Of a stretch of DNA of 44,303 bases, positions 13,452-26,846 are shown in pieces. The position numbers and the translations under genes were made by a program. The stretch is from an uncultured Novosphingobium sp. (lineage in GTDB: Bacteria > Pseudomonadota > Alphaproteobacteria > Sphingomonadales > Sphingomonadaceae). Where the stretch lies: assembly GCA_964658585.1 (NCBI GenBank), contig CAZZZX010000001.1, positions 1 to 44,303 of the forward strand, given 5' to 3'. The notes beneath the pieces were generated by a model. That model did not search any database and was not told where the DNA came from. It saw only the letters and a list, made by a program, of their open reading frames with translations. Numbering within the stretch: position 1 is the stretch's first letter; each line of letters begins with the position of its first letter.

Positions 13452-14210
13452 TCAGATCAAGGCGTCGATGTTCAGATGGCCGTCACGAACTGCCCGCAAG
13501 ACCAACTGGGTTCGCCGGCGAACACCGTAGCGTCGGCGGGCAGCCTCGACATATTCGTGTACAGTGTCGCGGCCGAGGCCAAGGATCTGCGCGCACTCCC
13601 AATCGCTCTTGCCCTGCGCGACCAGCGCAATACACTCAATCTGGCGAGGGCTGAGCGCCACTGGCGCATATACCTGGCGATCGTCGCCAAGGATCGACCG
13701 TCCGCGATCGAAGGCCACAGTGCCGATGAGACGAGCCACCAGCACTTCGTCGCTCGTCACTTCGTGGTCGCCTGACCGAGACACCGTAAACATCGCCTCT
13801 GGCTCATCGCTGACGCGGATCGGCATCGTGAAACCCGCGTCCAGGCCATGAGCGCGGCCCCGCTCGAGGATCGTGGCCTGCCGCGGGCTCATCGTGATGA
13901 AATCCCCGATCCGGTCCCAAGTCAAACCTGAAGGCGACCGTGTACAGGCGGCGTGGACTGGGTCGTCCAGATAAAGTCGATTTTCGATTATCTCCTCGAC
14001 CCACGCTTCCGGATAGGTCGTCAGCAACAGGGCCTTGTTGCTGCGTCTGGCCAAATCGACATTGTGAACCAAGGCAAACCATCGGAAGCCAGCTTCTCTG
14101 ACGATGGCATCGACTAGCGCCGACAGTTGATCGAGCGTCTCTGCGTGCTTTGAGCGTTGCTCGAATTCGCTGATCGCCGCCAGCGGCCCGCTGTCGCAAA
14201 GGTTTGTCAT
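13452..14210 (-). CDS. LuxR/TraR-family regulator (autoinducer-binding domain + HTH), LuxR solo
   Basis: YPEAW, DDPV, LTW in the ligand domain; C-terminal LSPRQIECIALVAQGKSDWE.AQILG...TV HTH. Confidence 0.9.
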   Translation of the reverse strand: MTNLCDSGPLAAISEFEQRSKHAETLDQLSALVDAIVREAGFRWFALVHNVDLARRSNKALLLTTYPEAWVEEIIENRLYLDDPVHAACTRSPSGLTWDRIGDFITMSPRQATILERGRAHGLDAGFTMPIRVSDEPEAMFTVSRSGDHEVTSDEVLVARLIGTVAFDRGRSILGDDRQVYAPVALSPRQIECIALVAQGKSDWECAQILGLGRDTVHEYVEAARRRYGVRRRTQLVLRAVRDGHLNIDALI

Positions 14211-14511: not shown

Positions 14512-15558
14512 ATGAAGCTGGTACGCGATGCGCGAACGCTTAAGACCAAGGCGATCGAGTCGCTTCGGACCGCAATGACGGCGTTCAACAGCTACGACGA
14601 CACCGGACGGGTCACCACGGTCCTGATGCACACCCAGCACGCCTGCGAAATGCTGCTCAAGGCTGTCCTCGTCCAGGGTAAAGCGAAGGTCTTCGACAAA
14701 GACAGCGGCAAATCAATCGGCTTTGAAAAGTGTCTGCGCCTTTGTCAGTCGCACCACGACCTTACGGCCGACGAGGCTGGCATAATGCGGGCTATCGACG
14801 CTCAGCGGGACGCGGCGCAGCACTGGTTTGTCTTCGTGTCAGAGGACTTGCTTTACATGCAACTTCGGGCGCTGATCACTGCGTTCGATGCCTATTTGAA
14901 GCGCAACCTCGATGTGGCTCTGCAGGAGCACATCCCACCCCGGGTCTTACCGATCTCGAGCAAGCCACCGGGCGACTTCGAATTCCTCGTCGATATAGAG
15001 TTCAATTACGTCAACGAGCTGCTGCAGCCCGGCCGTCGAGCGCGCGACGAGGCGCGTGCGCGAATCCGCGCTATGCTGGCCATGGAGGCGATCGTGACAG
15101 ACAAGGTCGAGATCTCCGAACGGGACATCGACCGGATCGAGAAAGCAATGCGTGGTGGCGCGGAATTCACCGCGGTATTCCCGCGCCTAGCGACCGTTGG
15201 CACCACCACGGAGGGTGACGGAGTGAACTTGGTCGTCCATTTCACGAAAAAGCAGGGTGCGCCCGTTCACTACGTTGGTGGCGACGATCCGGCGGCAGCG
15301 GGAGCCGTCCGCGAAGTCGATCTTCGCAAGAAGTTTCACCTTCAGCGAAACGAGCTTGCCACTGAGGTCGGCCTCAGCCAGCCCAAAGCCAAGGTTCTCC
15401 GCGTACATCTCGGCATCGACGACGACCCGAATTGTTGTCACGTTTTCGAATTCGGAGCGCAGAAGATTCCGTGTTTTTCCGATAACGCGAAGCGACGGAT
15501 GAAGGAGGCGCTCCCAAACATCGACATCGCCGAGCTCTGGGCCAACCGGAACGGCTGA
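14512..15558 (+). CDS. DUF3644-like / HEPN-domain protein, candidate defence toxin
   Basis: N-terminal KAIESL...AFN....GR....L....HACEMLLKA pattern and an Rx4H motif (RDAAQH). Confidence 0.65.
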   Translation: MKLVRDARTLKTKAIESLRTAMTAFNSYDDTGRVTTVLMHTQHACEMLLKAVLVQGKAKVFDKDSGKSIGFEKCLRLCQSHHDLTADEAGIMRAIDAQRDAAQHWFVFVSEDLLYMQLRALITAFDAYLKRNLDVALQEHIPPRVLPISSKPPGDFEFLVDIEFNYVNELLQPGRRARDEARARIRAMLAMEAIVTDKVEISERDIDRIEKAMRGGAEFTAVFPRLATVGTTTEGDGVNLVVHFTKKQGAPVHYVGGDDPAAAGAVREVDLRKKFHLQRNELATEVGLSQPKAKVLRVHLGIDDDPNCCHVFEFGAQKIPCFSDNAKRRMKEALPNIDIAELWANRNG

Positions 15559-18421: not shown

Positions 18422-19048
18422 TCAGCCGACCTTTCCCAGAACGCGCCTCACGACCGGCGCGATCGTGTAGACCGCTTCTCGCTGCGCCCCGCGATTTTTG
18501 TGGTCGACGCGGAAACCCTGATAGTGCCGGCGGATAAGCCCGGCGCGTACGAGATCGGACACGGCGCGGCTTACATTTGTGCGGCCGGAACGCAAAATTC
18601 GAGCGCGGACCTCCTCGCTGATCGCTTGCTCCGCCAGTAGCGAATCAGCGGGCAGCACATTTCGCTGCTCGAGATCGGCACGGACCTGGGCGAAGACGAC
18701 GCGGCGGCGTGCATCTCGCTGCGCCATCGGCATGAGGGCTGCAGTAAGCCAGTCTCGAACAGGGGTCGCCACTCCGGCTTCGCGTACATAGGGACCGGCA
18801 CTGTCCGTCTGACCCGCCGCGCGCGCGATCAGGTTCAGGACCATGTATGTATAGCGAGGTCGAGCCGACACGCCTGCCAGGCGCTCTAGAACTGCAGGAA
18901 GGTCGAGATCCTCGTCTAATGGAGAACCCCGCGGCGACGCTGCGTCAGGTTGGAAGCTTGAAAAAGACTGCGTCACACGCTCGATTTCGAGCGGAATCTC
19001 GCCTTCGCCAGCAGGCGCATTCTTGATGAAGAGGTCCGGCTGGAACAT
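18422..19048 (-). CDS. Hypothetical protein with C-terminal winged-HTH-like segment
   Basis: TNVSRAVSDLVRAGLIRRH...YTI resembles a wHTH; start taken at MFQPDLF (19048), alternative 19066. Confidence 0.65.
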   Translation of the reverse strand: MFQPDLFIKNAPAGEGEIPLEIERVTQSFSSFQPDAASPRGSPLDEDLDLPAVLERLAGVSARPRYTYMVLNLIARAAGQTDSAGPYVREAGVATPVRDWLTAALMPMAQRDARRRVVFAQVRADLEQRNVLPADSLLAEQAISEEVRARILRSGRTNVSRAVSDLVRAGLIRRHYQGFRVDHKNRGAQREAVYTIAPVVRRVLGKVG

Positions 19049-19113
19049 GGAACATTTCAAGCACATCGAAGGCGGTTTGTGAATCCTCTCCGTGACGATT
19101 AATGTCGTTTAAT

Positions 19114-19163: not shown

Positions 19164-20690
19164 TTAGATACCCTCGAACGGCATTGACAGGGACGGAGTA
19201 TAGGACCCCGACCGGTCCGCCTGAAAATCAAACTCATAAAGCGTCAATCGGCCGATCAACGCCTGTCTCTGACCCAAAAAGAACGTAAAGCCATTCGGTG
19301 CGGCAATAAACAGATGGACGAGGCTCCCGCTCTTTCCGGCCTTAGCAGTTCTGATTTTTGTGGTAACATCAGCAGCGAGATCGAAAGCGTGCCGACCGCA
19401 TACTACCGATTGCGCTCCCGACCCGCTTGTCGGACGACATACTAGAACCTGACCAACTTCAGGCAGCGCCTTGGCGACGTAAGCTCGGACATCTGCGGCA
19501 ATTTCGTGGGTCAGGCCAATGGCGATCGCGACATCATTCTTCCCCCCGGCGAGGTCGATTGTCTCAACGTCGAACGTGGGCCAGCTTGCCTCTGGCGGTC
19601 GGTCGTCAGCCGACCAGATTGCCTGCCCAACTGTGCGCTGCTCGATGTCGATTGCTCGACCCGACTTGAGATTCAAGACCGATCCAGCTGCAAAAGCCAG
19701 GCTTGTGTGCGTGTCGAAAACTACCTGGAGCCGCGGCGCGAACGTGGCGGCCGCGGTCAGGAAGCTTTTGAGCGCGGGGTAGAGCTTAACCGACCAGTCA
19801 TGCTCATCGCGGATGAATCGGTCATCAAACTCGGACGTGAGGTCGAGCACTTCGGTGCAGCGGTCCTCCAAAGGGTCGAAGGGATGCTCAAACGATTTGA
19901 CGCCAATGCTGAAGCTACGTCCGGCTTGAGTGGCGAGCAGGCCCTCGCTCACGCATGCCTTCCGGAAGGTGTCGGCATCGAATTCCAAGCGTCCCTGTCC
20001 CATCCATTGAAAGATCAGGTCGTCATAGAAAAAGGCGCTCTCATGGCTGGAAACCCGACGCAGTCCGCTCGAAAGAAAAAGCAGGTCGAGATGATCTCGC
20101 AACTCGTCAAGCGAATGCCAACTGCCGCCGAACGCCAATGCGGGAGCGAAAGCTTCGAGCGCATCCTCGTCGATGCCAAGGTGTTCACGCCAAAGTTTGC
20201 GTACCGCACCCGCTCCGCTATTGTCCGTTTTCGTGGCAAAAAGCCTGTCGACACGGAGCGCGCTCGATCTCGTTCCGACCATCAAGCGCAGTGGATCCTC
20301 CCGACCAATCTGCCAATTCGTAACCAATTTGAAACGCACGCCTGCGGCTCCGGTGGGCAACAGCCCATGCGCTCCGTGCGCTCGCTGAAGGAGCGACTTT
20401 GCATTGGCGTTTATGAATTCCGGGTCGATGAGGTCGGCGTAACCGAATGTGCCGGGGGTGCTGTGCCATTTGCATTGCGCATGTTCGCGTACAAGCGGCG
20501 CACCATATTGGTCACGGCGCGCCCTACCTGGTTGGAAGTCCACCCAGATATCGTCAAAGCTCTTCGGACCGATCTCAAATCCGACCCGCTGAATATCAGT
20601 GTCTGGCAGCAGAAGCCTAGCTGCGCGCAGCCAGAACATCCGGGCCTGAAAAATATCGCCATCGCGTCGGATCGTGACCGCTTGCGTCAT
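19164..20690 (-). CDS. CBASS effector: Cap4-like PD-(D/E)xK endonuclease + SAVED cyclic-oligonucleotide sensor
   Basis: N-terminal GDIFQ...FDDIWV...AQCK nuclease-type motif; C-terminal SAVED signature VHLFIAAPNGFTFFLGQ...LYEF; last gene of the CBASS operon. Confidence 0.85.
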   Translation of the reverse strand: MTQAVTIRRDGDIFQARMFWLRAARLLLPDTDIQRVGFEIGPKSFDDIWVDFQPGRARRDQYGAPLVREHAQCKWHSTPGTFGYADLIDPEFINANAKSLLQRAHGAHGLLPTGAAGVRFKLVTNWQIGREDPLRLMVGTRSSALRVDRLFATKTDNSGAGAVRKLWREHLGIDEDALEAFAPALAFGGSWHSLDELRDHLDLLFLSSGLRRVSSHESAFFYDDLIFQWMGQGRLEFDADTFRKACVSEGLLATQAGRSFSIGVKSFEHPFDPLEDRCTEVLDLTSEFDDRFIRDEHDWSVKLYPALKSFLTAAATFAPRLQVVFDTHTSLAFAAGSVLNLKSGRAIDIEQRTVGQAIWSADDRPPEASWPTFDVETIDLAGGKNDVAIAIGLTHEIAADVRAYVAKALPEVGQVLVCRPTSGSGAQSVVCGRHAFDLAADVTTKIRTAKAGKSGSLVHLFIAAPNGFTFFLGQRQALIGRLTLYEFDFQADRSGSYTPSLSMPFEGI

Positions 20691-20701: not shown

Positions 20702-21640
20702 TCAGACCGTACTGTCACGGAAGGGTGGTGTGGGTTCGATCGTGCGTGCTACCGCCAACGCGCCTGTCCCGTCGATCTTCCGGTGCGGGTAGGCGTCGAG
20801 CACGATCGACGGAAGCAATCGCTGTGTCAGATCCGAGAAAGTGAATCCGGCCTTGCCCTTCTGTGGACCTGTCGTTGCCACAAGCTGTTCGATTTGACCG
20901 GAAAGTAGGCCTAGCGGCTGCAATCTCGAGGTCAGAATATGCCGGCGCTGATCATCGTTGGGCCGCGCGAATTCTAAGATGTCCGCTGCACGCCGACGGA
21001 TGGCGGGGTCGAGAGCGTTCAATCGATTGGTGCACATGATCACTGCCGCCGGAAGCTTGCCGTTCGCAATTCGGTCGATCCCGCGAATGAACGCGTTTAC
21101 GCCAGCGCGGTCCTCATGGTGCATCTGGGTGGATTCCCGGGATTGGGCGAGGGCGTCCGCTTCATCGACCAGCAGGATAACAGCTCCGCGAGATCGGCCT
21201 GTGGCTGATTTAAGCTTGCTTGCCTCAGAGACGGTATAATCGAAGGCTGCGGCCACCAGCTGGGTCATCTCGCCGACCCGTCCTTGACCTCGCGCAGCAA
21301 GGCTCAGCGGGAGCAGAGTGATGTCGATGCCCTCCTGGCGCGCGACAGCGTCGCCAATCGTCTCAGCGAGTTCGGTTTTGCCGGAACCGACGTCACCGGC
21401 GAGCACGATCAACGGCGGCCGTCTCAAGACGGTGTCGAGCAATTGCTCGGCACCGGGATGATTTTTTGCCGCCCAGCTTTCGAGCCCGGCCGGGTTGACC
21501 AACAGACCAAGGATCTTGGTCAACCTTGTCTTCTGCGCGTCAAGGCCGACAAGCCGCGCCAGCCGGGCTTGCGGATCGAAATCGGGATAGGTGATTCGCC
21601 GTTCGAACAGCTGATCAAAATTGGGCTTATCAGTCATCAA
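20702..21640 (-). CDS. cap6: CBASS TRIP13/Pch2-like AAA+ ATPase Cap6
   Basis: Walker A GDVGSGKT, Walker B LLVDEAD, QMHHED, TNR..LDPAIRRR; follows the HORMA gene. Confidence 0.9.
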   Translation of the reverse strand: MMTDKPNFDQLFERRITYPDFDPQARLARLVGLDAQKTRLTKILGLLVNPAGLESWAAKNHPGAEQLLDTVLRRPPLIVLAGDVGSGKTELAETIGDAVARQEGIDITLLPLSLAARGQGRVGEMTQLVAAAFDYTVSEASKLKSATGRSRGAVILLVDEADALAQSRESTQMHHEDRAGVNAFIRGIDRIANGKLPAAVIMCTNRLNALDPAIRRRAADILEFARPNDDQRRHILTSRLQPLGLLSGQIEQLVATTGPQKGKAGFTFSDLTQRLLPSIVLDAYPHRKIDGTGALAVARTIEPTPPFRDSTV

Positions 21641-22152
21641 TAGCTCCTCACGGTGGACCTGCCGAGTGACCGTCCGCCAGCGGAATATGTACGATCCGCT
21701 TCGAGATAGCCGCTGATTGCCGGTTGCGCGGCCCCGCCACGATAGAGGGGCAGCGATTTCTTGAAGGCGTCGCGCTTATCTGCGGTGAGCGCATCCCATG
21801 CGGCGGTATAAGTGAGATAGCTGTAGAAGCTGGCGCCGGAGACGTCCTTGCCCGGTTTGATCTTGCCGGGATCGTCATCAAGCGCGGATCCACCCATCAG
21901 ATCTTTGTCGGTGTAGATTAAGGTCGGCTCAATCCAGCTACCGTTGCGATGGAAGCCGTAGCTGACGGTTCCGAGATAGCCGGCTTTCATCAGCGCGACC
22001 ACTTCCGCCTCATAGGTGAGAATATCACTGTCGCTCGGCGAACCGTAAAGGCGCTGCATCCGCTTCAGGTCGGCCGCCACCTTCGCTGCCATATGCCGGG
22101 CATGGGTAACGGTGAAGCTCTCAGTCGCGCTGATCGTATAGCTGGAAGCCAT
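21637..22152 (-). CDS. cap7: CBASS HORMA-domain protein Cap7
   Basis: MASSYT...FTVTHARHMAAKVAADLKRMQRLYGSP...DDDPGKIKPGKDVSGASFYS...YSAGGRSL.R; closely resembles the E. coli CBASS HORMA protein as recalled. Confidence 0.9.
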   Translation of the reverse strand: MASSYTISATESFTVTHARHMAAKVAADLKRMQRLYGSPSDSDILTYEAEVVALMKAGYLGTVSYGFHRNGSWIEPTLIYTDKDLMGGSALDDDPGKIKPGKDVSGASFYSYLTYTAAWDALTADKRDAFKKSLPLYRGGAAQPAISGYLEADRTYSAGGRSLGRSTVRSY

Positions 22153-22157
22153 GGGCG

Positions 22158-23123
22158 TTACACCTGAAATGAAGGACCGAAGACCTTCTGCCAATAATAG
22201 AGGGTTTCCTGTTTGGTCGGCGCGTAGAGCGCGGAGTCGATAGCGTCGCCCGCTTCGAGCGCCGCTTCGACGATCGCCGCGATGTTCGCGGACGTATAGA
22301 GTCGGCTCACATTGTTGATCTCGTTGACCGGATCAATGATCTGCATCGGCTCGCTGAAGCTGCCGAGCTTCGACGCCGGGTAATAGTCGGTGAAGCTGAT
22401 TTTTTCGCGCAGACCGCTGGTGGCGATGTAGGTGAAGAAATGCTGGAGCGCGTCGGGATAATCCGAAAGGTCGAGCCCCTGATCACACAGCTTGGCCATA
22501 ATCAGTTCGATCATGAACGATTTGAACCGGAAGCCATCCTGTTCAGCCTTCATCCGGCGCGCCCAAAATTTGATGAGGCGGACAACCTGCGAGAAATGCT
22601 TCTCCTGCGCCTTTTTGCGCTTCGAGCAGAAGTCGAGATGGAGCGGAATGCTAGTTTTGAGGAATGAGCCGTCGTCCTGGCTGACAAGGTTGCCATACCA
22701 GCTGGGGTCACCGTCATAGAGGATGGGTACGATGTCGACATCGAGACCGGAGCCACGGAAGGAGACAGTGACGCTGTAGGTTTGCGGTGTCACCTGATCG
22801 GCCGTGAAGTTCGGAAAAGCTTTGCGAAGCCGCTCAGCGAGGTAGGAGAGTAGTTCGGATACCTTGTGCGGCGCGTCGGCGCCCGAGATGTAACATGCGA
22901 CGTCGATGTCGTTGAGCGACCGCAGGGCCGTCCCCTTTGCGAGGCTACCCGAAAGCTGCATGCGCTTGAGGGTGAAATCAGGATGATCGCTGACATAGCT
23001 TTCAAGGCGCTCGCGCAACCGCCGGGCTTGCGCGCGATATTCATCAGCTTTGTCCTTCGGCAAATTGACCTTGTCCTGCGCGAACGCGGCGATCTCACGG
23101 TGGTTCACATGCTCGCGGGACAC
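22158..23123 (-). CDS. cdnC: CBASS cGAS/DncV-like nucleotidyltransferase (CdnC-like, probable cyclic tri-AMP synthase)
   Basis: SGSLAKGTALRSLNDIDV nucleotidyltransferase motif, DVDIVP, FKSFMIEL, DPVN..NNV, WQKVFG. Start GTG 23123 has SD AAGGAG. Confidence 0.92.
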   Translation of the reverse strand: MSREHVNHREIAAFAQDKVNLPKDKADEYRAQARRLRERLESYVSDHPDFTLKRMQLSGSLAKGTALRSLNDIDVACYISGADAPHKVSELLSYLAERLRKAFPNFTADQVTPQTYSVTVSFRGSGLDVDIVPILYDGDPSWYGNLVSQDDGSFLKTSIPLHLDFCSKRKKAQEKHFSQVVRLIKFWARRMKAEQDGFRFKSFMIELIMAKLCDQGLDLSDYPDALQHFFTYIATSGLREKISFTDYYPASKLGSFSEPMQIIDPVNEINNVSRLYTSANIAAIVEAALEAGDAIDSALYAPTKQETLYYWQKVFGPSFQV

Positions 23124-23165
23124 AAAATTCTCCTTACGGCCACGACTCATTGGCCAGTTTCAGCG

Positions 23166-23194
23166 TATGTAGCAGCTAGTTTTTGGCTATGCAA
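23166..23194 (-). promoter_or_regulatory. Candidate sigma70 promoter of the CBASS operon
   Basis: Minus strand TTGCAT-N17-TACATA upstream of cdnC. Confidence 0.45.
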
Positions 23195-23217
23195 TGCATC
23201 TAAATTAGCTGTTAATC

Positions 23218-23246
23218 GTTGACAGGCTATGGAGCTTTATCTATAT
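23218..23246 (+). promoter_or_regulatory. Candidate sigma70 promoter of the RHH-GNAT-HTH-peptidase operon
   Basis: GTTGAC-N17-CTATAT, near-perfect match to the rhizobial CTTGAC-N17-CTATAT consensus; SD GGAGG at 23262. Confidence 0.6.
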
Positions 23247-23268
23247 GGAATGCAGGCGGTTGGAGGAT

Positions 23269-23484
23269 ATGGTGGTGATCAAGCGAACGATGACGCTCAA
23301 TCTCACTGACGCCGAAATGCGCGTCCTTGATGATCTATCGGAACGAAAGGATCTGTCGAAGACGGCCGTGCTTCGACAGGCGCTACGCTTATATCAGGCC
23401 ATCGACGTGCGCGTGGAAAAGGGCGATAAGCTCGTTTTCGAGAATGACGTCACGCGTGAGAAAGCTGAGCTGATGCTGGTCTGA
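23269..23484 (+). CDS. Ribbon-helix-helix (CopG/Arc-like) protein
   Basis: KRTMTLNL strand followed by two helices (DAEMRVLDDLSERK, SKTAVLRQALRLYQ); start at ATG 23269 or GTG 23272/23275. Confidence 0.8.
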   Translation: MVVIKRTMTLNLTDAEMRVLDDLSERKDLSKTAVLRQALRLYQAIDVRVEKGDKLVFENDVTREKAELMLV

Positions 23485-24101
23485 TGGTCGATATATCGAC
23501 TATCTATTTGACGATCGGCGGCACCGACGATTCGGTGGAGGCCGAGTTGCGTGATGCGATCGAGCCTCAGCAGCTCGCCGATTGGAAATTGCTATGGCAG
23601 CCAGCTTTGATCGACGTACTCAAACAACGCTACCAGGCGAGCGGTTTTAAGGACTTCCCCGAGAACTGGCACTGGGACTGGCAGGGCAAAATGGCCGCCG
23701 TCGCCGGACTCCTTGCGTATCAAGGGTTTTCTGTCGTGTTGGGCGGTGAAACCCAGGGGCTGAGCCGTGTCGATCTGACGGGACACGGACGTGAGTCATC
23801 CCAGGTCGGCAAACCAATCGTTTATGTCGATTATCTGGAGGTCGCGCCTTGGAACAGGCGCGACCTTGGCTTCGACCCTCCCCGCTATGGCGGCGTGGGA
23901 AGCGCTTTGCTGGTGGCGGCTGTCGCGCTCAGCGAAGGCGAGGGTTTTCACGGTCGCGTTGGACTGCATTCGCTGCCGCGCGCCGATGACTTCTATCGCA
24001 AATGTGGTTTTTCGGATCTTGGCCCAGATTCGACTGTTCAGAACTTACGCTATTTCGAGATTACCGCGGAGCGGGCCCGGGCGTTCCTCGAGAAGGAGTG
24101 A
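23484..24101 (+). CDS. GNAT-family N-acetyltransferase
   Basis: VYVDYLEVAPWNR, acetyl-CoA loop RYGGVGSALL, LHSLP.A..FYRKCGF; TGATG overlap with the RHH gene. Confidence 0.85.
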   Translation: MVDISTIYLTIGGTDDSVEAELRDAIEPQQLADWKLLWQPALIDVLKQRYQASGFKDFPENWHWDWQGKMAAVAGLLAYQGFSVVLGGETQGLSRVDLTGHGRESSQVGKPIVYVDYLEVAPWNRRDLGFDPPRYGGVGSALLVAAVALSEGEGFHGRVGLHSLPRADDFYRKCGFSDLGPDSTVQNLRYFEITAERARAFLEKE

Positions 24102-24106
24102 CGAAA

Positions 24107-24601
24107 ATGAAACTGGAGCGAAGCAAGGAATGGTGGCTCGCACGTGCTCGCTGCGAGGGTGAAACTGTGCCTGGTGCCGGTCCTTTGGCCTTCGACCCCG
24201 TGCCGGACGAACGATCTGCCGCCGCAGTGGTACCCGAGGAAAATAGGATTGCTTTCGGCAAGTTCGTCAACATGATGCGGCGGCGCCAAGGCCTTTCGAT
24301 CGAGCAGTTCGCAGACGCCTCCGATTTGGACGCAAGAGAGCTTCTCGTTATTGAAGATGATCTGCATTATGTGCCGCCTCCGCGGACGGTCTTTAAGCTG
24401 GCTCAAATATTCAAGGTGCCTCAACCCCGGCTTATGCAGCTTGCCGGTCTAACCGTTGCGAACGATCAGGGATTAAGCGATGAAGCCGTGCGGTTCGCCG
24501 CACGGTCCGAGGCGGTACAGAGGTTGTCGCGTGAGGAGAGTGCGGCGCTCGAAGCATTTGTCGCAGTGTTAAGCAAACAGGAGCACCCGCGTCCGACGTG
24601 A
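24107..24601 (+). CDS. XRE-family HTH regulator (CapH/ImmR-like) with N-terminal extension
   Basis: FGKFVNMMRRRQGLSIEQFADAS...IE...P...VFKLAQIFKV....LMQLAG; SD AAGGAG before ATG 24107. Confidence 0.85.
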   Translation: MKLERSKEWWLARARCEGETVPGAGPLAFDPVPDERSAAAVVPEENRIAFGKFVNMMRRRQGLSIEQFADASDLDARELLVIEDDLHYVPPPRTVFKLAQIFKVPQPRLMQLAGLTVANDQGLSDEAVRFAARSEAVQRLSREESAALEAFVAVLSKQEHPRPT

Positions 24602-25527
24602 AGAATGTTAGCCTCGATTCACGCACCGTTCGGGATATCGATGACCAGGTCGCCAAAGTGCTGCGTGGCCTGGGAAATCCTGCGCCGCCGCTTGATCTGA
24701 GAATGGTCCGCGAGCTGTTGAAGCTCGATCGCGGTTATTACAGCACTACCGACGATGGCTTGCTGCGGGAGGTCTTCTCAAAGCTGAAGGTCGCCGGAAT
24801 TCAGGTACTGAAGCGACCTACCCTGCTTCGTGATGCGGTACGTGAGCTCAGTTTGAAGGCGCTCTATCTTCCCGATCAGAAGCGCATCCTGCTCGATAAA
24901 GATCTGCCGATCCTCAAGCACCGCTGGAATGAAGCCCATGAGGTTGGTCACGACATCATCCCGTGGCACGAAGGCATGATGTTGGGCGACACCGAGCAAA
25001 CTTTGACCCCGGCTTGCCATGAAATCATGGAGGCGGAGGCCAATTACGCGGCGGGCCAACTCTTGTTTCTCTCCGATCAGTTTTTGACCGAAGCAGCGTC
25101 CGAGGAGCCGACCATCAACTTCGTCAAGCGGTTGAGTGGTCGCTTTGGCAACACGATCACTTCAACAATGTGGCGGCTAATCGAACAGGCGCATCGCGAC
25201 CGACCGCTGGTGGCGCTAGTTAGCGCGCATCCGCATCCGGCCCGCCGGAAAGCATCGTTCGATGCCGCAAACCCCTGCCGCTATTGCATCCAGTCTCCCC
25301 TGTTCCGGCAGAGATTCGGCGGCTTTTCTGAAGTCGAGCTTTTCGCGATCTCGGCAGGCTATGCAGGAGCGCAGCGCGCGGGCCCCCTGGGCGAGAGTGA
25401 AGTTGCGCTGCGCGATCTCAATGGTGGCCGCCACAGCTTTCGCTTCGAAACCTTCTTCAACGGGCATGAAGCGCTGACGATCGGGACTTGGCAACGCGAA
25501 CTGGAAATCAGCGTATCGCTTGCGTAG
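24598..25527 (+). CDS. ImmA/IrrE-family Zn metallopeptidase (CapP-like)
   Basis: RWNEAHEVGH (HExxH) plus EAEANYAAGQLL third ligand; GTGA overlap with the HTH gene. Confidence 0.88.
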   Translation: MKNVSLDSRTVRDIDDQVAKVLRGLGNPAPPLDLRMVRELLKLDRGYYSTTDDGLLREVFSKLKVAGIQVLKRPTLLRDAVRELSLKALYLPDQKRILLDKDLPILKHRWNEAHEVGHDIIPWHEGMMLGDTEQTLTPACHEIMEAEANYAAGQLLFLSDQFLTEAASEEPTINFVKRLSGRFGNTITSTMWRLIEQAHRDRPLVALVSAHPHPARRKASFDAANPCRYCIQSPLFRQRFGGFSEVELFAISAGYAGAQRAGPLGESEVALRDLNGGRHSFRFETFFNGHEALTIGTWQRELEISVSLA

Positions 25528-25565: not shown

Positions 25566-26807
25566 CTATACGATCTTCGCCATGAGGCGCCCCGCCGCGC
25601 CATGTTCCGCGGCGAGGTTACGATTATAGGCGAGCGGCATCCGTGGCGATTTCCACCGCAAAGCGTCCATTATTCCCGCCAAATCCTCGCCACTCGCGAA
25701 CAGGTCCTGATTGAGCCCGATCCGCGTAGAGTGCGCGCTGATCCCCTTGAGCAAGCGGGCCAGATCTTCGGCCGTAAGATCGGGCAAAGCACCGCGATCG
25801 AACGCTCGCTGGATGATGGACCGGAAGATCGGCCCGATCGATCCCGGATGCAGCGCAACGGCACCGATGTCATATTCGACGCGCGCCTTCACCGCCGGCT
25901 TGGAGAGCGTCTTGCGCAGATCCCACGTCTCCCGTCCGGAGATGCTGTCGATCGGCCGACCGCGCACCGCAGCGCGGGCTTTGTAGCGCCGCACCTGCAC
26001 CCGCCGGAACAGCGGCCCCGACGTGATCTCTGCCGCTTCGGTCCAGGCCGCGATCGCCGCGACCGTGCGCGGACTGAGGTAGGCGGTCGCCCCCTCCCCG
26101 TCCTGATCGCCTTTGCTACGCAGGATCTGTAGCAGACGCGCTTCGGGATCGATCGCTTCCTCGATATGCTCGACCGCGACCGCCACCAGCTCGGAGGCGC
26201 GCAGCCCGGTGTCATAGGCGGCCGACAGCAGCGCCCGATCGCGCAGCCCCGGCAGATCATCGCCGCAGCTCTCGAGCAGCGCGCGGATATTGAGCCCGCG
26301 CGCCTTGTCGCGCTCGACGTCGCGCACGGGGCCCTTAAACCGCAAAGGTCGCGCCTGCTTCTGCGCTGTGCCCTTCTCCCGTCGCACCGCTGCGAGCCGA
26401 AGCTTCACCAGGGGTGCTGACGTCGGATCCTTGAGGTCGAGTAGCTGGTGGATCTTGGCGATCGACGCCTTGTAGCGACCGAGCGAGGCAGGCTTGCTCC
26501 CCTTCCCTGCCCGCGCATCGAGATAATCGGCAACGGTCTCGGCCGCCGCCGGCAGCGCGATCCGGTTCATACGCCGGCACCAGGCATCGAACGCTTCGAC
26601 GTCCAATTTCAACGCTCGGATGCTGTGGGGCGACGACGAACGCTGGTAGGCGGCGATGAGCGCCTCGTTGATGACTATGCGCTCGCCGGCGCGCATCTGC
26701 ACAATCGACCAGGCGAGGTCACTCTGCGCCGCAATGGCCGGCAGGGCCGCCTCCGACTGCGCTACAGCGGTTTCTTGCCCTTCCAAGGCGGTTTCGATGC
26801 CCATCAC
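25566..26807 (-). CDS. Tyrosine recombinase/integrase (plasmid resolvase type)
   Basis: RDRALL...TGLRASEL, RSKGDQ, HSTR, RW.S..M...Y. Start GTG 26807 or ATG 26804 with SD AGGAG at 26820-26816. Confidence 0.9.
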   Translation of the reverse strand: MMGIETALEGQETAVAQSEAALPAIAAQSDLAWSIVQMRAGERIVINEALIAAYQRSSSPHSIRALKLDVEAFDAWCRRMNRIALPAAAETVADYLDARAGKGSKPASLGRYKASIAKIHQLLDLKDPTSAPLVKLRLAAVRREKGTAQKQARPLRFKGPVRDVERDKARGLNIRALLESCGDDLPGLRDRALLSAAYDTGLRASELVAVAVEHIEEAIDPEARLLQILRSKGDQDGEGATAYLSPRTVAAIAAWTEAAEITSGPLFRRVQVRRYKARAAVRGRPIDSISGRETWDLRKTLSKPAVKARVEYDIGAVALHPGSIGPIFRSIIQRAFDRGALPDLTAEDLARLLKGISAHSTRIGLNQDLFASGEDLAGIMDALRWKSPRMPLAYNRNLAAEHGAAGRLMAKIV

Positions 26808-26846
26808 GCGCCACGCTCCTCGGCGGAGCTTGTAACGCACCTTATA

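Follow-up and report, generated by a model that had tools for sequence, protein, structure and literature searches.

The 44,303-nucleotide stretch of DNA from an uncultured Novosphingobium sp. that we analysed (contig CAZZZX010000001.1; the window) carries on its forward strand four tightly coupled genes, encoding a ribbon-helix-helix (RHH) protein, a GNAT acetyltransferase of an unnamed family, a protein with an XRE-type helix-turn-helix (HTH) domain and an M78 zinc peptidase. This cassette is a conserved unit, not a chance arrangement, and it is likely a general controller of the immune operons beside which it lies; in the window that operon is a complete type III antiphage signalling system based on cyclic oligonucleotides (CBASS), made up of CdnC, HORMA, TRIP13 and an endonuclease-SAVED effector. 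We suggest, as a tentative model to which we give a little under an even chance, that the cassette is a DNA-damage-triggered relay controlling the neighbouring immune operon. The genes and their junctions (TGATG between RHH and GNAT, a 5-bp gap between GNAT and XRE, and GTGA between XRE and peptidase) are as the preliminary description had them, and the region shared with cdnC, put there at about 145 bp, measures 145 bp from the GTG of cdnC to the ATG of the RHH gene.

Scanning with the GNAT confirmed 412 loci in species genomes, of which we analysed the 80 closest, and 579 in metagenomes, of which we analysed the best 80; 54 plasmid records with the GNAT were found and 20 examined (14 proteobacterial, 6 cyanobacterial). 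The RHH gene precedes the GNAT gene in 78 genome loci, the XRE gene follows it in 79 and the peptidase is present in 71 (a few peptidases are cut or broken); the two loci missing the RHH are a contig edge and a truncated locus. The corresponding numbers for the metagenome loci are 73 for the RHH, 71 for a full XRE and 54 for the peptidase, and those without a counted RHH comprise five at contig edges and two with a broken GNAT frame, which were not assessed. Most of the 160 genome and metagenome loci thus repeat the same gene order, as do all 14 proteobacterial plasmid loci, one with a broken peptidase. Plasmid searches matched the RHH in 19 records and the XRE in 18, with the cassette in all of these except one RHH record; the cassette is widespread among proteobacterial mobile elements. 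Among viral contigs there were eight pattern matches to GNAT relatives, none of which was confirmed. Across 69 loci, the four proteins co-vary in their pairwise identities (Spearman 0.74-0.88), a pattern that shared descent alone would produce. The metagenome scan was meant for distant branches and mostly returned the four-gene clade again. One record titled Leptospira interrogans (L057) has a cassette and a Bub operon close to the proteobacterial ones. We left out P0186, which at first sight fuses RHH and GNAT but seems to be a read with a frameshift.

The expectation that the four genes would recur beside defence operons is borne out by the neighbourhoods: a divergent defence-type operon is found in 66 of the 80 genome loci (CBASS 34, Bub 28, of which two are partial, Bil-like 2, TIR 2), and the remaining 14 either lack one or end too early. 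Metagenome loci face Bub/Ubl operons in 41 cases, CBASS in 4, a Bil-like operon in 3 and DUF2188 in one, with none in 8 and 23 too short, so that a recognisable divergent operon is present in 49 of the 57 long enough to judge. The preliminary description had placed the module beside a type III CBASS; Bub operons are as common there, and with Bil-like and TIR operons also found in that position, we reject a role specific to CBASS. It is likewise unlikely that the GNAT acts on CBASS proteins, since unrelated immune operons fill the same position; of the earlier idea that the GNAT tunes either CBASS or the regulators, the latter part is our favoured model. Peptidase and defence operon also go together. 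With two edge loci excluded, 65 genome loci have both, five have the peptidase only, eight have neither and none has a defence operon alone. Put differently, the defence operon is missing from all eight full-length genome loci that have no peptidase, compared with 5 of the 70 that have one. The peptidase-less loci represent about four independent losses; five of the eight form one clade.

Several of the divergent regions have features of their own. A small DUF2188 gene comes first in the divergent operon at L013:5415-5645, L015:5317-5541 and L056:7288-7512, and at one of these three loci a Cap12/Pycsar TIR gene follows. A conserved gene of about 69 residues with no Pfam match stands ahead of the Bub operon at L086:7433-7642 and at related sphingomonad loci. 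Another type III CBASS (TRIP13, an unknown gene, HORMA2, CD-NTase and DUF6602) lies behind a close cassette at L020:1582-5158, and in four other loci the SAVED effector is swapped for DUF6602. The complete cassettes of L129 and L137 face a related unrecognised gene (about 400 amino acids in L137), which is a candidate new defence gene. At L009:5783-12073, an insertion sequence separates the cassette from its operon, and the adjoining ordinary XRE-peptidase pair has its own Bub operon.

About 48 residues lie ahead of the HTH domain in the XRE protein, and in the alignment of 63 homologues W9 is invariant while A14, E17, A24 and G25 are each found in at least 90%. In all 80 genome loci, and in all 76 metagenome loci with room for one, the gene behind the GNAT carries this N-terminal motif; no intact RHH-GNAT pair without a motif gene was seen in the 156 assessable loci. 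The motif occurs alone in genes of 66-72 residues (L091, L160, L161) and fused to an M78 peptidase (L140), to DUF1508 (L102) and, in five cyanobacterial loci, to an unrelated domain. The cyanobacterial motifs match the profile of the proteobacterial XRE motif weakly (0.8-7.6 bits), although five of the six cyanobacterial downstream genes rank in the top 9 among 536 open reading frames (ORFs) and that of L100 falls outside the top 16; the link is made by rank, position and reading by eye. A modelled complex of GNAT, CoA and XRE residues 1-40 scores 0.89 against 0.02 for the best control. Among solved complexes, 116 of 157 reach the score mark, as do 2 of 215 mismatched pairs; this calibration is only rough here, as we supplied the alignments and included the ligand. 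Between runs, at least 65% of contacts are shared, and the partner pLDDT is at least 54. In the model, XRE residues 1-16 pack on the first strand of the GNAT, its motif-A helix (G136-G137, S140-A141), F170 and K173-G175, adding a strand to the N-terminal strand and placing a helix on the outer face beside the active site. Co-occurrence and modelled binding together support the N-terminal motif of XRE as the constant partner of the GNAT, and the modelled position makes it likely that the motif inhibits the enzyme.

We note two of the fusions in their own right. In L140:6644-8663 the motif is joined to a different M78 peptidase, with a Beta-protein gene (PF14350) behind it; a multi-Ubl gene and DUF6791-ThiF make up the divergent operon there, and the operator boxes read TGGCCA. 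The motif-DUF1508 fusion of L102:4160-4477 stands behind a Leptolyngbya GNAT.

The GNAT itself constitutes a family of its own, as had been proposed from its Trp-rich N-terminus; we count 993 relatives when clustered at 90%, and 1,793 clusters at 50% identity. The Trp-rich region is a family trait (W38 and W66 invariant, W64 in at least 90% of 133 sequences); motif A spans R134-G139, G139 and Y171 are invariant, and H162 is found in at least 90%. Neither the GNAT nor the RHH is named by an NCBIfam or PADLOC model, and against PDB sequences the GNAT profile gives a weak match to SACOL1063 only (E 0.6). The predicted structure (pLDDT 97.9) is confirmed as a GNAT fold by fold searches, in which no GNAT subfamily stands out. 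The best match is PA3270 (Z 14.1, rmsd 3.0, 164 aligned); the toxins TacT3 (Z 13.1, rmsd 2.7, 150 aligned), AtaT (12.2) and TacT2 (12.1), spanning rmsd 2.7-3.2 over 144-152 aligned residues, are tied with dozens of other GNATs, and N-terminal, lysine and small-molecule acetyltransferases are among the neighbours. The protein is acidic, with a net charge of -9 (family median -3, range -17 to +15).

The profile of the XRE protein matches the N-terminal domain of CapH (7t5u, E 1.6e-4), and the HTH domain is followed by C-terminal helices, as expected of CapH. Residues 63-92, however, have a median net charge of -8 over the 63 homologues, compared with -1 and 0 in two ordinary XREs, and the position of CapH R40 is Asp or Glu in 58 of 63. 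We suggest that the protein has likely lost DNA binding. The intergenic region contains a consensus dyad of two TAGCTA boxes separated by five nucleotides, often with further boxes, which is present in 116 of 144 distinct upstream regions and in 0.19% of doublet shuffles. A stricter pattern has a single match in the 3.8-Mb genome from which the window comes, the one in the window. The operator tracks the RHH, not the XRE, because it stays where the HTH domain is missing and is absent at XRE-peptidase loci that have no RHH: it is retained in L096, where the RHH is the sole survivor, and in L091 and L160, whose partner gene has no HTH domain, and it is absent in all four loci of the second kind (L097, L098, L099 and the second pair of L009). 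RHH dimers fit well onto short palindromes spaced by one helical turn. Since the operator tracks it, we consider the RHH a likely repressor of the divergent immune operon; its lysines K31 and K65 are invariant in 77 of 77 rows.

The peptidase had been called CapP/IrrE-type, and we agree. Over 309-320 columns, its model (pLDDT 82) matches 8sln, 3dte and 7t5t (E from 4e-9 to 5e-8, TMq 0.55-0.56), so that by fold it resembles CapP and PprI/IrrE over the full length, with a peptidase-HTH-GAF architecture. The zinc ligands H114, H118 and E145, together with E115 of the HExxH motif, are invariant in 47 of 47 sequences and align to IrrE and CapP. By homology, cleavage of the cognate XRE would be activated by single-stranded DNA (ssDNA); in this respect only K107, which by our count lies at the spacing of CapP R90, is invariant. 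CapP is described as cutting CapH between F82 and R83 upon ssDNA binding in the available text of two reports (10.1101/2022.04.27.489752; 10.64898/2026.05.16.725639). In XRE, F130-A131-A132-R133 opens the C-terminal helices, with A131 conserved in 62 of 63 homologues, A132 in 63 of 63 and the R133 position more variable; these counts come from alignment columns, a regex tally that picked some wrong sites having been set aside. By analogy, this stretch is a likely candidate for both the cut site and a cryptic ClpXP degron. Ala-Ala ends exposed by cleavage lead to degradation of CalpT and RseA and free sigma factors, according to the text available to us (10.1101/2024.05.08.593097), and clpX is present in the same genome as the window (TIGR00382 over cut-off at G000:C80). 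A cut more than 100 residues from the motif could free the GNAT because the exposed degron would destroy the XRE fragment that holds it.

A planctomycete plasmid (L097:4628-6628) offers a parallel. A sigma-like gene stands in the place of the GNAT (Sigma70_r2 only at E 0.026), the XRE has a different N-terminal extension, the peptidase is 43% identical to that of the window, and a ThiF-JAB gene lies downstream. Judged from these sequences, it is probably an anti-sigma counterpart that works by the same release logic and has transcription as its output; 24 systems with a sigma factor are mentioned in the accessible text of the CapH+CapP paper 10.1101/2022.04.27.489752.

Our relay joins visible parts (genes, conservation, operator sequence and folds) through a modelled GNAT-XRE contact and through activities that are, throughout, what we infer. 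RHH dimers would occupy the TAGCTA boxes observed between the -35 and -10 elements of the CBASS promoter, while the first ~16 residues of XRE, docked in our model beside the acetyl-CoA site, would keep the GNAT inactive. Homology and fold suggest that ssDNA would activate the CapP-like peptidase. XRE would then be cut between A132 and R133, leaving a C-terminal Phe-Ala-Ala and passing the fragment to ClpXP. The freed GNAT would acetylate K31 or K65 of the RHH and so lift repression, a step proposed from logic and analogy and the least supported of the five. Its place in the scheme follows from the arrangement: provided that it is the RHH and not the XRE that holds the promoter, the GNAT is the only route by which the peptidase signal can get there.

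Several observations weigh against this relay. Five related genomes (L055, L062, L063, L080 and L094) have an intact RHH-GNAT-XRE and neither peptidase nor defence operon, which resembles an addiction module. Only adjacency links the GNAT to the RHH; of the six cyanobacterial GNAT-motif loci, only two have an RHH-like gene upstream (by eye, with no Pfam RHH match), and an annotated defence operon is seen at none of them, so that a different target is probable for these GNATs. E17 and A24-G25 of XRE, although conserved, have no confident placement in the modelled complex. Some DNA-reading features persist in XRE: 26 of 63 homologues have Ser where CapH has S32, 31 of 63 have Arg or Lys at R44, and R93-T94 is near-invariant. 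The switch cysteine of CapP aligns to G130 of the peptidase; D131 and C140, in or after the same low-confidence loop, are invariant, and the cysteine switch is not universal within the M78 family. The dyad pattern was derived from the same upstream regions in which it was counted, and L096 may be a deletion relic. Finally, both scans used the 80 most similar loci, and distant branches of the family are barely sampled.

In the strongest of the other explanations, the GNAT would be a toxin and have the XRE N-terminus as antitoxin; the damage-activated peptidase would destroy the antitoxin, the GNAT would acetylate a host target and growth would arrest alongside the immune operon, with the RHH merely regulating both promoters. 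It fits a motif that is never missing behind an intact GNAT, whereas HTH domain, peptidase and defence operon can each be lost; it also fits the two-gene plasmid module of GNAT and motif in cyanobacteria, where most pairs lack an evident RHH, and the clade that keeps RHH-GNAT-XRE alone. The fold searches do recover TacT3, AtaT and TacT2, but these are tied with dozens of other GNATs and rank below PA3270, and so do not decide the matter. tRNA-acetylating toxins are generally basic, and the GNAT is acidic. A toxin provides no path from the peptidase to the immune promoter, yet peptidase and defence operon are lost together. There are precedents in the available portions of the literature, namely VapKSC (PMC13373217) and the proposed three-part M78-XRE-toxin systems (PMC2701414). 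We regard the toxin, the main rival to the relay, as somewhat unlikely.

Two further schemes seem to us less probable still. The GNAT and the XRE N-terminus could form one enzyme, or the motif could be its substrate, with an acetylated small molecule, phage or immune protein or XRE fragment as product and cleavage stopping or redirecting the enzyme. The modelled contact lies beside the active site and was not seen inside it, strict co-occurrence suits a required subunit as much as an inhibitor, and the fold neighbours span N-terminal, lysine and small-molecule acetyltransferases. Against this, a conserved lysine is missing from the motif, the immune proteins next door are mutually unrelated, which makes a shared immune substrate unlikely, and the RHH is left unexplained; we judge such an enzyme improbable. 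The preliminary description had read the locus as an AtaRT-like RHH-GNAT pair fused to ordinary CapH+CapP, so that XRE would repress the CBASS promoter until cut by CapP and the AtaRT/TacAT-type pair would be co-induced. The RHH-GNAT gene order is that of AtaRT, the XRE profile does match the CapH N-terminal domain, the 17-bp palindrome of the dyad could be read by an HTH dimer, and such loci are scored CapH+CapP in a published table (PMC11601596, as far as its contents are available to us). That reading is opposed by the partner of the GNAT, which by model and co-occurrence is the XRE N-terminus, by the acidic recognition region of XRE, by an operator that survives without the HTH domain and is absent at XRE-peptidase loci lacking an RHH, and by the lack of any motif-less intact RHH-GNAT pair in the 156 assessable loci. 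We consider it very unlikely.

Returning to the relay, its broadest form would be a new class of immune controller, a four-step cascade of protease, degron, acetyltransferase and repressor in which acetylation of RHH lysines switches on CBASS, Bub or Bil operons, and in which a portable anti-acetyltransferase peptide of ~25 residues has been grafted onto an XRE protein, an M78 peptidase, DUF1508 and a cyanobacterial domain. This is possible, and we hold it only slightly more loosely than the relay itself. If true, acetylation would join ligand binding, proteolysis and phosphorylation as a switch for immunity, a large unnamed GNAT family would gain a partner and a function, and there would be a route to inducing Bub operons, which still await a role. 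The cassette has so far been counted as CapH+CapP, and its anatomy suggests that XRE is an inhibitor or adaptor rather than a repressor. With the operator, the candidate lysines and the candidate degron named, each step of the relay is directly testable; should the GNAT instead be a toxin, the result would be a new protease-gated toxin-antitoxin family.

Table 1. Coordinates of the cassette, the divergent CBASS operon and the regulatory elements in the window.
Feature	Position	Strand	Details
RHH (CopG-like) gene	23269..23484	+	71 aa; GGAGG upstream; PF01402 E 6.7e-4, slightly under cut-off
GNAT acetyltransferase gene, unnamed family	23484..24101	+	205 aa; Acetyltransf_10 E 1.8e-4, under cut-off; GNAT fold in model
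XRE-HTH gene	24107..24601	+	164 aa; HTH_19 E 1e-9
GNAT-partner motif, XRE residues 1-26	24107..24184	+	From XRE homologue alignment and modelled GNAT complex
M78 zinc peptidase gene, CapP/IrrE-like	24598..25527	+	309 aa; HEVGH; PF06114 E 4.7e-4; PADLOC capP E 3.4e-11
CdnC-type CD-NTase	22158..23123	-	GTG start 23123; NF041116 425 bits, cut-off 200
HORMA (Cap7), bacHORMA_1	21637..22194	-	ORF limits; true start probably slightly further in
TRIP13-like AAA ATPase (Cap6)	20702..21640	-	Profile matches
Endonuclease-SAVED effector	19164..20690	-	Profile matches
Operator dyad	23173..23189	.	Fills spacer of putative cdnC promoter
Putative cdnC promoter	-35 at 23194-23189, -10 at 23171-23166	-	Read from consensus
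Third operator-like box	23206..23211	.	Directly upstream of the cassette's own -35
Putative sigma-70 promoter of cassette	23219..23247	+	TTGACA-17-TATATG; kept in most homologues

The XRE gene has an alternative GTG start at 24098, overlapping the GNAT stop. The cassette is single-copy in its own genome (3.8 Mb, 83% complete), and with the CBASS genes it forms an eight-gene island of low GC content (57.7%, compared with 67.6% for the genome). A winged-HTH-like gene (18422-19066, minus strand) and a tyrosine recombinase gene (25566-26840, minus strand) flank the island, and these neighbours together with the low GC suggest a plasmid or mobile element. Further out, a candidate defence gene at 14512-15558 (plus strand) matches PADLOC PDC-S19 (E 2.5e-168) and also DUF3644 and, weakly, HEPN; it lies 3.6 kb from the CBASS. 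A LuxR-type regulator with autoinducer-binding and GerE domains is encoded at 13452-14210 (minus strand).

The four-gene unit is apparently undescribed as such in print; our literature searches, which left most subscription papers outside, found no description of it or of its extra genes. The words GNAT, acetyltransferase and ribbon do not occur in the main text of 10.1101/2022.04.27.489752, whose supplement or journal version may annotate the loci, and GNAT and acetyltransferase do not occur in the text available for PMC11601596, PMC10557695 and 10.1101/2024.11.21.623966 (Bub/Bil) or PMC13373217 (CapK+CapS). Table S1 of PMC11601596, in the part at hand, enters Rhizobium sp. CIAT894, Sphingobium wenxiniae and S. 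faniae under CapH+CapP and leaves two or three gene numbers between CapH and Ubl unlisted and without comment; our searches find the cassette in all three. Links between GNAT and RHH, GNAT and Xre, and COG2856 and Xre were noted separately in the accessible part of PMC2701414.

The cassette can be compared with several known systems, which we take as their available texts describe them. With AtaRT, TacAT and KacAT it shares an RHH gene directly before a GNAT gene and a GNAT fold (Z 12-13). It differs in that a partner-motif gene always follows, so the pair is not a self-contained two-gene module, and in that its GNAT has extra N-terminal strands and a Trp-rich region, is acidic and has no sequence match in the profile search of the PDB. 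RptR (PMC12255303) is, as the RHH would be, a small defence-island repressor whose sites are TAGCTA hexamers repeated over a promoter, and the operator hexamer at 23173-23211 equals the published RptR site. Neither the RHH nor the XRE brought up RptR, a four-helix protein, when searched against PDB sequences, although no direct comparison was made; the common hexamer is probably convergent. The relay model resembles CapK+CapS and VapKSC (PMC13373217) in leading from a damage signal through covalent modification of a repressor to immune derepression, and those systems also illustrate that one set of parts can be recruited for gating a toxin as well; it differs from them in its presumed use of acetylation rather than phosphorylation, in the protease step ahead of it and in having no homology. 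In CalpL-CalpT-CalpS and RseA-sigmaE (10.1101/2024.05.08.593097), a cut exposes an Ala-Ala degron and frees a partner, as we propose here, but with a SAVED-Lon protease in CalpL rather than M78, cA4 rather than, presumably, ssDNA, and a sigma factor rather than an acetyltransferase set free. The closest relative is CapH+CapP (10.1101/2022.04.27.489752; 10.64898/2026.05.16.725639), which has the same M78 peptidase fold, the XRE C-terminal helices, an Arg after the likely cut and a divergent placement beside CBASS, Bub and Bil. The cassette departs from it in the two extra conserved genes between promoter and XRE, in the ~48-residue XRE extension with its modelled GNAT-binding motif, in the acidic recognition region, in an operator that tracks the RHH and in the CapP switch cysteine not being found at the aligned position. 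It is a variant of the CapH+CapP kind in which the wiring is probably different.

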